From the IMG/VR virus record IMGVR_UViG_2775507075_000002: a DNA stretch of 20,000 nt; one strand, given 5' to 3'. The translations under genes and the position numbers were made by a program. The notes under the pieces were generated by a model. The model saw only the letters and a program-made list of their open reading frames with translations. It was not told the origin of the DNA and searched no databases. Source of the stretch: an uncultured virus (IMG/VR IMGVR_UViG_2775507075_000002). Taxonomy: Duplodnaviria > Heunggongvirae > Uroviricota > Caudoviricetes. Below are positions 161 to 5,283 of this stretch, piece by piece (position 1 is the stretch's first letter; each line of letters starts with the position of its first letter).

Positions 161-189
161 TTTACAAAATGTATTCGAGACAGTATCTT
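161..189 (+). promoter_or_regulatory. Sigma70 promoter for small RNA A
   Basis: TTTACA (161-166), 17 bp spacer, TATCTT (184-189); a same-strand terminator begins about 55 bp downstream. Confidence 0.6.
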
Positions 190-194
190 TCGAC

Positions 195-273
195 TTCCGG
201 ACAAAAAACATATACCGGGACAAAATCTAAATGTAACTGCCTTGCCTGCATGAAACCATGCGGGCTTTTTTTT
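195..273 (+). ncRNA. Candidate ~80-nt small RNA (RNA A), antisense to the late transcript
   Basis: Promoter 161-189; 5' hairpin TTCCGG/CCGGGA (195-220) with a 14-nt loop; terminator GCCTGCATG-AAAC-CATGCGGGC-T8 (244-273). Confidence 0.6.
244..273 (+). terminator. Intrinsic terminator
   Basis: 9-bp stem with one G-U pair, followed by T8. Confidence 0.85.
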
Positions 274-281
274 GCCCAAAG

Positions 282-302
282 AAAAAGCCCACCGAAGTGG
301 GC
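282..302 (-). terminator. Intrinsic terminator, convergent with 244-273
   Basis: Minus strand GCCCAC-TTCG-GTGGGC-TTTTT. Confidence 0.85.
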
Positions 303-443
303 CTTACAGCTATCATCATTTTTTATTAGGTGTGGTGCCGGGTGCCTCCCGGTAAGTCGCCGCCAGTCCACAGACGACTCGCAATGCGCAAAAAAACATA
401 TCAGACTGGCAATGCCCCTCCGCATAGGGGGATTCACCACACC
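282..443 (-). ncRNA. Candidate structured RNA with pseudoknot (RNA B)
   Basis: Closing stem 329-337/435-443 (9 bp perfect); hairpins 415-430 and 338-352; stems 354-361/373-380 and 362-368/404-410 cross each other. G-U pairs form only on the minus strand. Has its own promoter and terminator. Confidence 0.7.
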
Positions 444-446
444 AGA

Positions 447-475
447 AATTTAACATTCAGTCTTTCTGGTTTCAA
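447..475 (-). promoter_or_regulatory. Sigma70 promoter for RNA B
   Basis: TTGAAA (475-470), 17 bp spacer, TAAATT (452-447) with extended TGn; predicted +1 falls within the 5' strand of the closing stem. Confidence 0.7.
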
Positions 476-602
476 TACTCTGCTTGTCTGAGGTATCGGC
501 TCACCATAACCGCCCAGCCTGATGTTATCAGCGTGTAGCGGCTTGTTTTTCTCTTTGATAAAATTGATTCGCAAATGATTAAAACATCAACTGGTGCATA
601 AT

Positions 603-1049
603 ATGAGTAAGTACTCAGACCTTTTACAGGTAATCAAGTCACGGGTTTGCCAAAATAACAACTTCCCCCAAACATTACTGGCAGACTCACACAGTTACAG
701 AACCAGGCAGGTTTGGTACCGAATAGGACAAATATTCACTCTTGAATGTATTCTCGATGAGTACAGGAAACATTTTTCATCGGATTATTATTATCTTGAT
801 AACGATAAGGCTCTTCATCACCTTATCTTCGAAATGACCAAGTGGAAACCTGAAGAGATTAGAAGACTCTCGCTAAACGACTGTCTCTTTATCATTGCCA
901 GTCAACTAAAGCCCAGTTATATGTCAGAAGATGCTGCCGCTGTCCTGGCGTCACTCAATCTGCCGACTGGCCACTATCCTGTTGAGGATTTTCCACAAGA
1001 GGACTGGGATCCCAGGGAAAACTCAGCATTCCTTGAAAGCTATCAGTAG
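603..1049 (+). CDS. Hypothetical prophage accessory (moron) protein, 148 aa
   Basis: AT-rich ORF against the late-operon direction, preceded by extended -10 TGaTAAAAT (556-564); start at 594 or 603. Confidence 0.75.
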   Translation: MSKYSDLLQVIKSRVCQNNNFPQTLLADSHSYRTRQVWYRIGQIFTLECILDEYRKHFSSDYYYLDNDKALHHLIFEMTKWKPEEIRRLSLNDCLFIIASQLKPSYMSEDAAAVLASLNLPTGHYPVEDFPQEDWDPRENSAFLESYQ

Positions 1050-1212
1050 CGACTCGCCCAATCTCCGCAGAGATCTGACTCAGCCGCTCCTCAAGAGCGG
1101 CTTTTTCTGCTATCAGACGGTTGAAGTGGGCAAGATAGATTTTCTGTTGCCCAAGCCAGTCTTCAAGCTGTTGAGTGGTCATGCCCGGGTTAAAAAAATA
1201 TGGTTGCTGCAT
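955..1212 (-). CDS. Hypothetical 85-aa protein with predicted coiled coil
   Basis: GGGGGAA RBS before ATG; heptad-like segment LIAEKAALEERLSQISAEI; directly downstream of the tRNA. Confidence 0.65.
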   Translation of the reverse strand: MQQPYFFNPGMTTQQLEDWLGQQKIYLAHFNRLIAEKAALEERLSQISAEIGRVATDSFQGMLSFPWDPSPLVENPQQDSGQSAD

Positions 1213-1279: not shown

Positions 1280-1355
1280 TGGTGCTGGTTGACGGAATCG
1301 AACAGCCGACATCCTGCTTACAAGGCAGGCGCTCTACCTTCTGAGCTAAACCAGC
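1280..1355 (-). tRNA. tRNA-Thr (anticodon UGU)
   Basis: 76 nt; acceptor stem GCTGGTT/AACCAGC + ACCA; anticodon arm CCTGC-CT-TGT-AA-GCAGG; T loop TTCGATT; one T-stem mismatch. Confidence 0.93.
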
Positions 1356-1546: not shown

Positions 1547-2368
1547 TCACCGCGTTATTTGTTTGAGTTGCGCCTCTGCCCACGCTTCCTCTATATCGAA
1601 TTTAGTGATCAATACGTCGAAGAACGGTTTAACCGATTTCTTCCAGGTATCCAGAGTGATGGCGTCCGTTATCTGGCAAATGGCCCTATGCACAGCAGTG
1701 GAGAGGATTCGCTCATACCCGCGACCACCACAGCGTTTACAGTTACCCATCACAGGCACTCCCTGCTTCTCCGTCTCATCCTGGTTCACTACCTTCCCCC
1801 GACCGTGGCAGTCGTTACAGGCGGCGCTAACAGTCCCTTTTCCCTTGCACTTTTGGCAAAGCACCCGGACCTGCTCCCGGACCGACTTCACCTCCTCCCA
1901 GTATGATGGATAGATCCCCTTTGTAACTTTGACCCACTTCGGCGGTTTGCCGTCCGGATACGTTACTTTGTTGGTGAACGCCACTGCGTCGATGAATCCA
2001 GACCCATTGCAGCAGTCGCATGTTTTTTTACTGGAAGCACTGCGGGAGTAATCCTCAAAGGCGTACTCTGCGAGGATCCGTATAACCCGGGGTTTTACGC
2101 TTGGCGAGAGCTTTCGCAACGCAGCAACCTTATCGCATTTTGTCAGCGCGTACTCAGCCAATAGTCCGATAGCCCGATCCCGGTCATTGTTGCTTATGCC
2201 CATCTTGCCCAGGAAAGCGCTATACCCCATAGCGGCACGTTCCTGGGTCATGCCCATTGCTGCCATGATGTCGGTGCCGGTCAGTGAATCAGAGGCGGTA
2301 GCACGCGGAGAATCGCTAATCAGCGTGGATTTTGCGAAGTGGTATTTCACTGTGTTTTCAAGATTCAC
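1547..2368 (-). CDS. Q: Late antitermination protein Q (lambda Q family)
   Basis: N-terminal SDSPRATASDSLTGTDIMAAMGM closely matches lambda Q; CxxCxGxG zinc motifs; GTG start overlaps the upstream stop. Confidence 0.93.
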   Translation of the reverse strand: MNLENTVKYHFAKSTLISDSPRATASDSLTGTDIMAAMGMTQERAAMGYSAFLGKMGISNNDRDRAIGLLAEYALTKCDKVAALRKLSPSVKPRVIRILAEYAFEDYSRSASSKKTCDCCNGSGFIDAVAFTNKVTYPDGKPPKWVKVTKGIYPSYWEEVKSVREQVRVLCQKCKGKGTVSAACNDCHGRGKVVNQDETEKQGVPVMGNCKRCGGRGYERILSTAVHRAICQITDAITLDTWKKSVKPFFDVLITKFDIEEAWAEAQLKQITR

Positions 2369-4845: not shown

Positions 4846-5166
4846 TCAAGGTTTTACCAGACTGAATTTTATTGTATCCCGATACACCCCTGGATGGCCT
4901 GGCACAAACTTACACTTTTTAATAGCAACCTCAGTTTCCCTGAAGAAAACCTCATCGCCCGTTATGTCTACTGAGTACACTTCGCCTTTATCATTAACCC
5001 ACGCCGCATAATCGACACTCCCTTCAGTTCTCAATGCCTGAGCCTTCACTGGCATCACTGGCGCAGGACAACTTATACGCACAGGTGATATTTCTTTTTT
5101 ATTATCAATAGCAAACACCACGTTTGATATAAGAGCAGCACTAACCAGAAGTATTAATTTTTTCAT
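4846..5166 (-). CDS. Secreted stand-alone TonB C-terminal-domain protein, 106 aa
   Basis: Signal peptide MKKLILLVSAALISNVVFA, then PVMPVKAQALRTEGSV...VNDKGEV...FFRETEVAIKKCKFVPG, which fits the TonB_C pattern. Confidence 0.8.
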   Translation of the reverse strand: MKKLILLVSAALISNVVFAIDNKKEISPVRISCPAPVMPVKAQALRTEGSVDYAAWVNDKGEVYSVDITGDEVFFRETEVAIKKCKFVPGHPGVYRDTIKFSLVKP

Positions 5167-5283
5167 AAACGATACCAACTCTGTTTTCCTTGCGTCCAAA
5201 ATTCACTAATGCGCATTTTGCATGCAACACCGTAGGTGTGTTCCGCTTAGGCACCGCCCCTTAGGGTATGGGGGGATTATAGT

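Follow-up and report, generated by a model that had tools for sequence, protein, structure and literature searches.

A predicted five-way junction with a kissing-loop helix in the prophage-encoded RNA STnc100

What is the compact, multibranched RNA encoded between the antitermination gene and the lysis genes of a 66.8-kb Klebsiella-type provirus, and how might it act? The question is posed by a sequence-only reading of the window (the whole 20,000-nt stretch of provirus DNA analyzed here), which proposed a structured minus-strand RNA with an H-type pseudoknot and its own promoter, left its family and function open, and called for an Rfam search. That search was run and returned RF02076, STnc100, on the minus strand at 469-274 with 108.1 bits against a cut-off of 47 (E value of 3.7e-23), spanning the full model (positions 1-206 of 206). 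The Rfam scan of the locus found no second family at its cut-off, ribozyme families included. The proposal of a structured RNA stands, and a new RNA family is ruled out by the RF02076 match, the outcome that the reading itself had named as removing its novelty. The locus is a further copy of the catalogued STnc100 family, and the revised anatomy is the new part.

The provirus carries one STnc100 copy, which is intergenic and lies between the late promoter and the lysis genes. Read along the minus strand, the order is Q, tRNA-Thr, an 85-aa open reading frame (ORF), a 151-aa gene on the opposite strand, the STnc100 RNA, and holin:

1547..2368, minus strand: antitermination protein Q (PF03589, E value of 5.5e-43)
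1280..1355, minus strand: tRNA-Thr(UGU) in the same late leader (tRNA search)
955-1212, minus strand: late gene of 85 aa (phrog_3501)
594-1049, plus strand: ECs1072-family moron of 151 aa (NF033230)
274..469, minus strand: Rfam STnc100 match covering promoter region, core, tail, and terminator (108.1 bits)
161..273, plus strand: candidate convergent sRNA gene, with a promoter-like site at 161-189 and a terminator at 244-273 (sequence signals)
Starting at position 2 and continuing beyond the window: holin gene (phrog_785)

The same arrangement is found in Klebsiella phage KPP5665-2, which carries an identical 211-nt stretch, likewise between Q and holin. Among 50,697 phage records, 111 match the query in part, and 4 of these match over 80% of it. 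The tie to lambdoid late leaders, which the earlier reading had pointed to, is borne out by these homologues in the Q-holin interval and in phage records. The NF033230 moron on the plus strand overlaps the end of the 85-aa phrog_3501 gene on the minus strand. A 117-aa ORF elsewhere in the window (4846-5199, minus strand) has a weak likeness to the TonB C-terminal domain. Two ORFs that overlap the RNA, at 162-440 (minus) and 169-453 (plus), were considered as protein genes and rejected, as neither has a Pfam family.

All elements named by the sequence-only reading are present on the minus strand between 443 and 329. The closing stem pairs 443-435 with 337-329, the hairpins CCCCU-AUGCGG-AGGGG and CCGGG-AGGCA-CCCGG lie at 430-415 and 352-338, and GCCAGUC (410-404) pairs with GACUGGC (368-362), the latter within the loop of an 8-bp stem (380-373/361-354). 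The region also folds better than chance, with a z-score of −2.97 and 2 of 200 shuffles as good. The comparison with homologues revised how these pieces are arranged, and the window copy is parsed as follows:

447..475, minus strand: sigma-70-type promoter (TTGAAA-17-TAAATT), with the −35 element at 475-470, the extended −10 element at 452-447, and an inferred start at 440
435..443, minus strand: 5′ strand of P1, pairing with 337-329 (inner six pairs 98-100%, outer three 74, 67, and 45%)
432..434, minus strand: J1/2 linker AAU (98-100% conserved in 125 rows, partly set by the search anchors)
416..431, minus strand: P2 hairpin of 5 bp with a bulge at 419 and loop UNNGC at 426-422 (99.7% paired)
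413..415, minus strand: 5′ strand of P3, pairing with 381-383 and closing L3 (122, 116, and 108 of 125 paired)
404..410, minus strand: kissing strand in L3, pairing with 368-362 in L4 (swap test)
384..403, minus strand: variable single-stranded part of L3, a loop of 18-52 nt across homologues
381..383, minus strand: 3′ strand of P3 (covariation)
354..380, minus strand: P4 hairpin, 380-373 with 361-354, its loop holding 368-362 (basal five pairs 93%)
338..353, minus strand: A353, which is invariant, and the P5 hairpin (loop AGGCA), directly joined to the 3′ strand of P1 (99.8% paired)
329..337, minus strand: 3′ strand of P1 (paired columns)
306..328, minus strand: A-rich single-stranded tail (column conservation at most 43% across 149 tails)
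276..305, minus strand: intrinsic terminator (terminator scan, which places it at 305-284)

Homologues were collected by scanning sets of viral and genome sequences with motif patterns, which gave 257 distinct cores, 131 of them at <85% identity. Removal of two non-family sequences, two mis-anchored duplicates, and two unparsed cores left 125 rows with a mean identity of 60%. The search anchors impose part of the invariance of J1/2 and P5; all 93 distinct cores recovered with the 5′ anchor alone carry a P5-like 3′ motif, 74 of them exactly. On the MAFFT alignment, the nested P1-P5 model pairs 91.9% of cells and reaches a covariation score of 0.371, compared with 0.153 for shuffled and at most 0.092 for slid models. 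The first hairpin proposed earlier most likely forms in another register: the original one pairs 84.3% of cells, its last pair forming in 64 of 125 rows, whereas the bulged register, CCC-CC with GG-N-GGG around a UNNGC loop, pairs 99.7%, with two-sided change in three pairs. P3 joins the bases directly after P2 to those directly before P4 (122, 116, 108, and 66 of 125 rows at successive positions). Its mean length is 3.37 bp versus 2.47 ± 0.07 in 5,000 permutations, its third pair occurs as GC (59), AU (20), UA (13), and CG (12), and pair types switch 6 times at position 2 and 21 times at position 3 on a tree computed from the remaining columns. All of the basal five pairs of P4 show two-sided change, with 93% paired, and P5 has a compensated third pair in two loci (L501 and L506). 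The linkers of the resulting five-way junction measure 3, 0, 0, 1, and 0 nt.

The crossing stem of the earlier reading proved to be a real helix, as judged by covariation and by swap tests that need no alignment, and it is of another kind than claimed. Its 5′ strand is enclosed in the loop closed by P3; it is therefore a loop-loop (kissing) helix and not an H-type pseudoknot. With P3 and P4 set aside, a helix of at least 6 bp forms in 102 of 125 own pairs versus 26% of swapped pairs, while the 3′ part of L3, used as a control for the kissing strand, gives 20 of 125. The helix begins with 62 different 5-mers. In an alignment-free loop-swap test, the pairing energy of the strand following P2 is −10.1 kcal/mol with its own P4 loop, −6.8 with the loops of other copies, and −6.0 with shuffled loops, and the best of 10,000 permutations reached −7.7. 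The plain MAFFT alignment shows just 27-30% pairing in the columns of the kissing helix, because the variable linkers misalign it; the swap tests were used instead for this reason. Among 27 held-out cores, a set that includes at least one likely false match and several wrong P4 registers, 19 have a P3 of at least 3 bp and 14 a kissing helix of at least 6 bp (26% when swapped). For the window copy, two nested readings are nearly equal in energy (−41.6 and −41.2), so the choice of nested fold rests on covariation.

Collectively, these data predict a core of about 112 nt in which a kissing-loop helix locks a five-way junction, with its helices supported by covariation. The RF02076 consensus differs from this fold in lacking P3 and the kissing helix and in having another P2 register. 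A description of such a fold was not found in the text of the largely open-access papers searched. The junction and the loops L2 and L5 carry the conservation, which L3 and the tail lack. Both loop motifs are present in 246 of 252 cores, and the U..GC of L2 in 250. Few loop variants occur among the 252 cores, with no compensated change between L2 and L5. We infer a contact between L2 and L5 and stacking of P1 on P5, which would give a tRNA-sized body. The kissing helix is shorter than 5 bp in 8 of 125 rows, which represent variants without the knot. A 95-nt variant from Escherichia coli (L046, 1194-1302; L117, 218-326) has an extended P3, a short P4, and no kissing helix and retains L2 and P5.

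The proposed promoter of its own is supported by homologues. A promoter at the same distance occurs in 36 of 137 main-group members, compared with 5.1 ± 2.2 after shuffling, while the match by itself is at chance level (3 sites in 1-1600 versus 2.1 expected). Conservation of P1 falls off outside the pair at 440, consistent with a start there, in which case the promoter-driven RNA would hold about six of the nine closing pairs. The core of the window copy is intact, its A-rich tail is 23 nt long, and it is followed by a terminator and no gene, which is not the arrangement of a riboswitch.

Evidence for expression comes from a copy identical to window 443-151 (L455), in strains other than the window's own. 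This copy gives an abundant, discrete minus-strand RNA of about 165 nt in two sequencing runs (X21 and X22). In the stranded run X21, with strand assigned by a rule for such libraries, depth over 331-420 is 502-576 on the minus-RNA side versus 22-28 on the other, and it is 15-33 over 151-300. Run X22, which is unstranded and labeled as possibly DNA, has about 7,400-fold depth over the core versus about 140-fold past the tail, a fall of about 50-fold just before the terminator. Most X22 reads cover the tail, and their ends pile up at positions equal to window 310-307, probably the last accessible stretch before the terminator. A few chimeric X22 reads rejoin at the position equal to 440. In the strains behind both informative runs, the DNA upstream differs from that of the window, and part of the RNA begins upstream of 440: 199 X21 reads run into upstream DNA unlike that of the window, and 109 X22 molecules start 48 nt before the inferred start, beside a transposase-like ORF of 348 aa. 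The reads hint at an additional start at the edge of the transposase-like element. Of 100 loci, 9 have such an ORF directly before the promoter (e.g., L439, 1426-2472; L455, 1-164). Three further runs (X14, X15, and X16) have 92, 104, and 22 reads, mostly partial; runs X17 and X19, with 1 read and with 7 reads of a relative, lack the copy and are uninformative.

The sequenced RNA is mostly untrimmed at P1, unlike a tRNA. Between 407 and 329 the depth stays level, and the internal pile-ups of 5′ ends are not the same in the two libraries, whose reads show no reproducible internal break of the kind expected from self-cleavage. On the plus strand, the candidate at 161-273, an RNA of about 78 nt whose terminator faces that of STnc100, has a depth of only about 3-fold over its body in the stranded run, too little to show expression. 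Convergent sRNA dyads, such as AsxR/AgvB, are described in passages on enterohemorrhagic E. coli (EHEC) prophages (PMC4104026), and the 161-273 candidate is likely the convergent partner of STnc100 in a dyad of this kind.

One publication (PMC9029176) counts STnc100 among the most abundant of the annotated sRNAs in bacteria, and about 3,000 viral stretches contain its 3′ motif. Matches to model R1, scored on 24 candidates per genome and therefore of limited sensitivity, were found in 21 of 151 genomes in a family-level sample, 3 of 151 in an order-level sample, and 1 of 151 in a class-level sample. The last is the center genome itself, so that at this depth the class sample shows no spread beyond Enterobacterales. 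Four loci labeled as outside the order (L277, L313, L316, and L329) are ordinary cores whose labels or assemblies are possibly wrong, and two non-enterobacterial matches (L282 and L382) were dropped as lacking P1/P2. A covariance model gave 5-12 matches in each of five genomes, which were chosen for having a match. Plasmids also carry the element (242 of 72,556 records match). Large Klebsiella plasmids account for 161 records at 90-95% identity, and a 92% identical copy (L668, 2997-3113) is flanked by an IS21 element on one side and by an unannotated stretch on the other.

The surroundings of the core vary widely. Most copies do have a tail, and a crude scan found a terminator within 110 nt in 69 of the 134 cores with enough flanking sequence. 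The next copy follows within 30 nt in 5 of these 134, and a tRNA in 2 (5-8 nt before the tRNA). A same-strand tRNA lies within 1 kb in 20 of 101 cores. Among tRNAs near homologues, CAU, UCU, UCG, and UGU anticodons dominate. A Pantoea plasmid contains two units, each with a promoter, three copies, and a terminator, in which the cores stand in tandem without tails. Three-core arrays with one promoter-like site and one terminator also follow a Q-like gene in Pantoea (L486, 570-1614; L320, L327, and L331). Cargo found after other cores includes terminator tails, dicB, kilR, ash/Rha, kdgM, and tRNAs, and C4 and isrK lie directly downstream of some copies. Copies are also chromosomal: of 37 loci scanned, 5 have one before a KdgM porin gene (L518, L521, L523, L527, and L531), in the order divergent LuxR-type regulator, core, and porin gene, possibly a domestication as an mRNA leader. 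Across 100 viral loci, a single 47-nt 5′ part is joined to 21 upstream and 19 downstream sequences of 75-100 nt.

A second branch of the family, marked by a GCGGC P2, occupies early operons. None of 11 members has a promoter of its own, 2 of 17 loci reach the Rfam cut-off, and a long P1 (at least 14 bp) occurs in 9 of 17 copies, compared with 1 of 167 others. Two unannotated members are in E. coli K-12, one in Qin between dicF and dicB (1649452-1649583; L544, 17452-17583; 65.8 bits) and one in Rac between kilS and kilR (1418260-1418392; L545, 7260-7392; 63.7 bits). Each stands right after a DicF-type terminator and shortly before a cell-division inhibitor gene (dicB or kilR), and a scan of the K-12 prophage DLP12 found no STnc100 copy. 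Free energy alone predicts the five-way junction for the Qin copy, on a P1 of 26 bp (z-score of −5.3). The 72-nt DicF is reported, with reference to Faubladier 1990, to be made by RNase III; with the annotated 5′ end as its start, its 3′ end would fall at 1649453, ten pairs below the five-way junction. A published list of RNase III sites gives 1649470 for dicF-dicB, 17 nt from the computed position, and 1418510 for kilR-sieB, which is not at the Rac copy. The literature search on KilS and on processing of the kilR/sieB leader found nothing relevant. A third unannotated core lies in phage P1 (AF234172.1, 70076-70203; L666, 2497-2624), 30 nt before tciA, in a region with the annotated ban operon, a dicF-like feature, and genes for tRNA-Asn, -Thr, and -Ile. 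Phage SfV also carries a copy of this branch. In long-P1 copies the structure may merely serve as a cleavage site.

Several relatives have been studied as regulatory RNAs, and the published passages on the STnc100 family give neither a mechanism nor an established function. EcOnc27/sRNA103 of EHEC is described as overlapping STnc100, and EcOnc27 as binding Hfq (PMC4104026, PMC7873438). A common ancestor of PasD and STnc100 has been reported from RNAalifold consensus folds (PMC8550237; 10.64898/2026.05.13.724894); the text on this ancestry mentions no pseudoknot, kissing, junction, or DicF, and the consensus figure may show more. The same sources describe PasD1 and PasD2 of enteropathogenic E. 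coli as Hfq dependent, and a bioRxiv report places PasD2 in the most abundant CsrA chimera (10.64898/2026.08.12.744399). We located PasD from RIL-seq rows (PMC8550237); among the rows listed, the Hfq chimeras of PasD involve mostly its 3′ end, and a few PasD2 rows involve the 5′ part. With a score of 35.3 bits, PasD retains P1, P3, the kissing helix, and P4. Unlike the window copy, it lacks P5 and the UNNGC loop (the L2 motif), and its U-rich tail is longer. Since PasD is nevertheless Hfq dependent, these invariant parts are not needed for Hfq action. Of the features of an Hfq-dependent sRNA, the window copy has the terminator with a U tail and lacks a conserved single-stranded seed (tail columns reach at most 43%); a lineage-specific seed may lie in the tail. 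In the supplements of a Klebsiella Hfq study (PMC10907235), the copy was not found, and the strain may lack it or the lists may give coordinates only.

The data establish that the RNA belongs to STnc100, that its helices covary, that an identical copy is transcribed, and that the core occurs in a range of gene contexts. On this basis we favor, at a probability of roughly 0.4, a core that acts by its shape and not through base pairing, likely binding and titrating a host RNA-binding protein with its P2 and P5 loops, a mechanism suggested by conservation and context. Of the roles put forward by the sequence-only reading, the decoy or protein-binding one thus remains the best candidate. In the predicted fold, the invariant parts (J1/2, L2, A353, and P5) form one face and the variable parts the other. 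This invariant face, the several production routes, the arrays free of cargo, and the loss of the face in PasD together favor an autonomous RNA acting by shape. Host polymerase would transcribe the RNA from its own promoter in the lysogen, from 440 to about 276; P1 would stack on P5 and the two invariant loops would touch, forming the tRNA-sized body. In early operons, RNase III would cut the lengthened P1 and free the same core. The unconserved tail would be a trailer, which some lineages (PasD) may have made into an Hfq-dependent regulator. Candidate partners would be a tRNA- or RNA-cleaving defense or decay enzyme or a reader of tRNA-like shapes. Few copies stand in tandem or before a tRNA, which weighs against this shape-based reading, and an ordinary-sRNA view fits the tails and terminators of many copies, the Hfq-bound relatives, and the presence of PasD2 among the top CsrA-bound RNAs. 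A bolder and, in our estimate, rather improbable version would make STnc100 a tRNA-shaped decoy, made from its own promoter in lysogens, excised by RNase III in Qin, Rac, and P1, and amplified in tandem, that neutralizes a host anti-phage protein targeting tRNA or sensing RNA, with PasD as a decayed copy carrying an Hfq trailer.

Four other explanations were weighed against protein binding by shape, and we rank a protective cap next, followed by a guide, an aptamer or ribozyme, and a recombination site. Compact RNA folds hinder RNase E scanning, and the core could be a protective 5′ cap and processing landmark that blocks RNase E and marks RNase III cuts while the downstream cargo acts. This is possible, at a somewhat lower probability than the favored reading: P1 begins at the inferred start site, the cargo is as varied as listed above, the same 47-nt 5′ part precedes at least four unrelated downstream sequences in the 100 viral loci, and PasD and EcOnc27 are described as Hfq bound in the passages cited above. 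A cap leaves unexplained why tail-less tandem copies each retain the fold and why loop sequences are invariant where a plain hairpin would suffice, and PasD is still an abundant Hfq RNA despite the loss of L2 and P5. More doubtful is the guide-like role that the sequence-only reading suggested for the single-stranded segment of the scaffold. In this view, L3 or the tail would act as antisense to phage or host mRNAs in the manner of C4 and CI-type RNAs. L3 is single stranded and is anchored by P3 and the kissing helix, it varies from copy to copy, also among tandem ones, and the direct downstream position of C4 and isrK at some copies would suit such a role. The segment is unconserved, and its pairing with neighbors does not exceed controls: over 100 loci, the longest match of L3 to same-strand neighbors averages 7.64 versus 7.50 ± 0.08 when swapped, that of the tail 8.02 versus 7.76 ± 0.10 (a small excess), and the longest match in its own genome, 11 nt, is equaled in 12-17% of shuffles.

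The lysine riboswitch is an aptamer built on a comparable junction and kissing-loop architecture, and the tight five-way junction, the kissing loop, the dozen or so invariant unpaired bases, and the position of some copies in 5′ leaders would also suit a ligand-binding aptamer (a sponge for a signaling molecule) or a ribozyme. We consider this improbable, as the locus has no expression platform, just a promoter, the core, and a fixed terminator; the flat depth and library-dependent pile-ups give no sign of self-cleavage, and no other Rfam family reaches its cut-off. Least probable by far is that the conserved ends are DNA exchange points for moron swapping in the late leader, the RNA being incidental. 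The many partners of the 47-nt 5′ part on both sides are what such exchange would leave, but the two-sided changes in P1-P4, the strand-specific G-U pairs, and the high strand-specific expression require selection on an RNA fold. As the sole explanation, exchange is largely refuted; it may be a side effect.

The revised anatomy bears on well-studied systems. An intricate conserved fold is absent from the Rfam model of a highly abundant annotated sRNA family, and a branch of that family is unannotated in two laboratory workhorses, E. coli K-12 (dicF-dicB and kilS-kilR) and phage P1 (before tciA). The reason why lambdoid prophages keep RNAs beside lysis and cell-division genes, called unclear in one account (PMC7873438), is now testable in K-12. 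A true protein decoy would be an RNA-only device for counter-defense or host takeover.

Among known systems, the closest are members of the family itself: STnc100/EcOnc27 and the window copy share the place between late promoter and lysis gene, the convergent dyad, and the two conserved motifs. A class II tRNA has five helices with a long variable arm, and C4 of phages P1 and P7 and CI of P4 are tRNA-like phage RNAs. The core resembles these in helix order, in a first and last helix joined without a linker, in a short linker before the second, and in some loci with tRNA genes. Unlike a class II tRNA, it has no T-loop, D-loop GG, anticodon loop, or 3′ CCA, its arms 3 and 4 kiss, and the sequenced RNA is untrimmed at P1; ARAGORN and RF00005 searches of the window core were negative. 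The likeness to tRNA is a lead, not membership, in which the order fits and the stacking is predicted. GGA triplets in the core, and the CsrA chimera of PasD2 in the bioRxiv report (10.64898/2026.08.12.744399), resemble features of PasE-type CsrA-guiding sRNAs and the CsrB/C sponges. A CsrA sponge was considered and rejected: the P2 GGA occurs in just 53 of 125 rows, the GG of P5 is paired, and the loop GGA is unconserved. GOLLD and ROOL occur in tRNA-cluster context. Both are several times larger than the core, and neither matches the window element in Rfam; like it, they are ornate RNAs associated with prophages and have kissing loops (PMC12286853).
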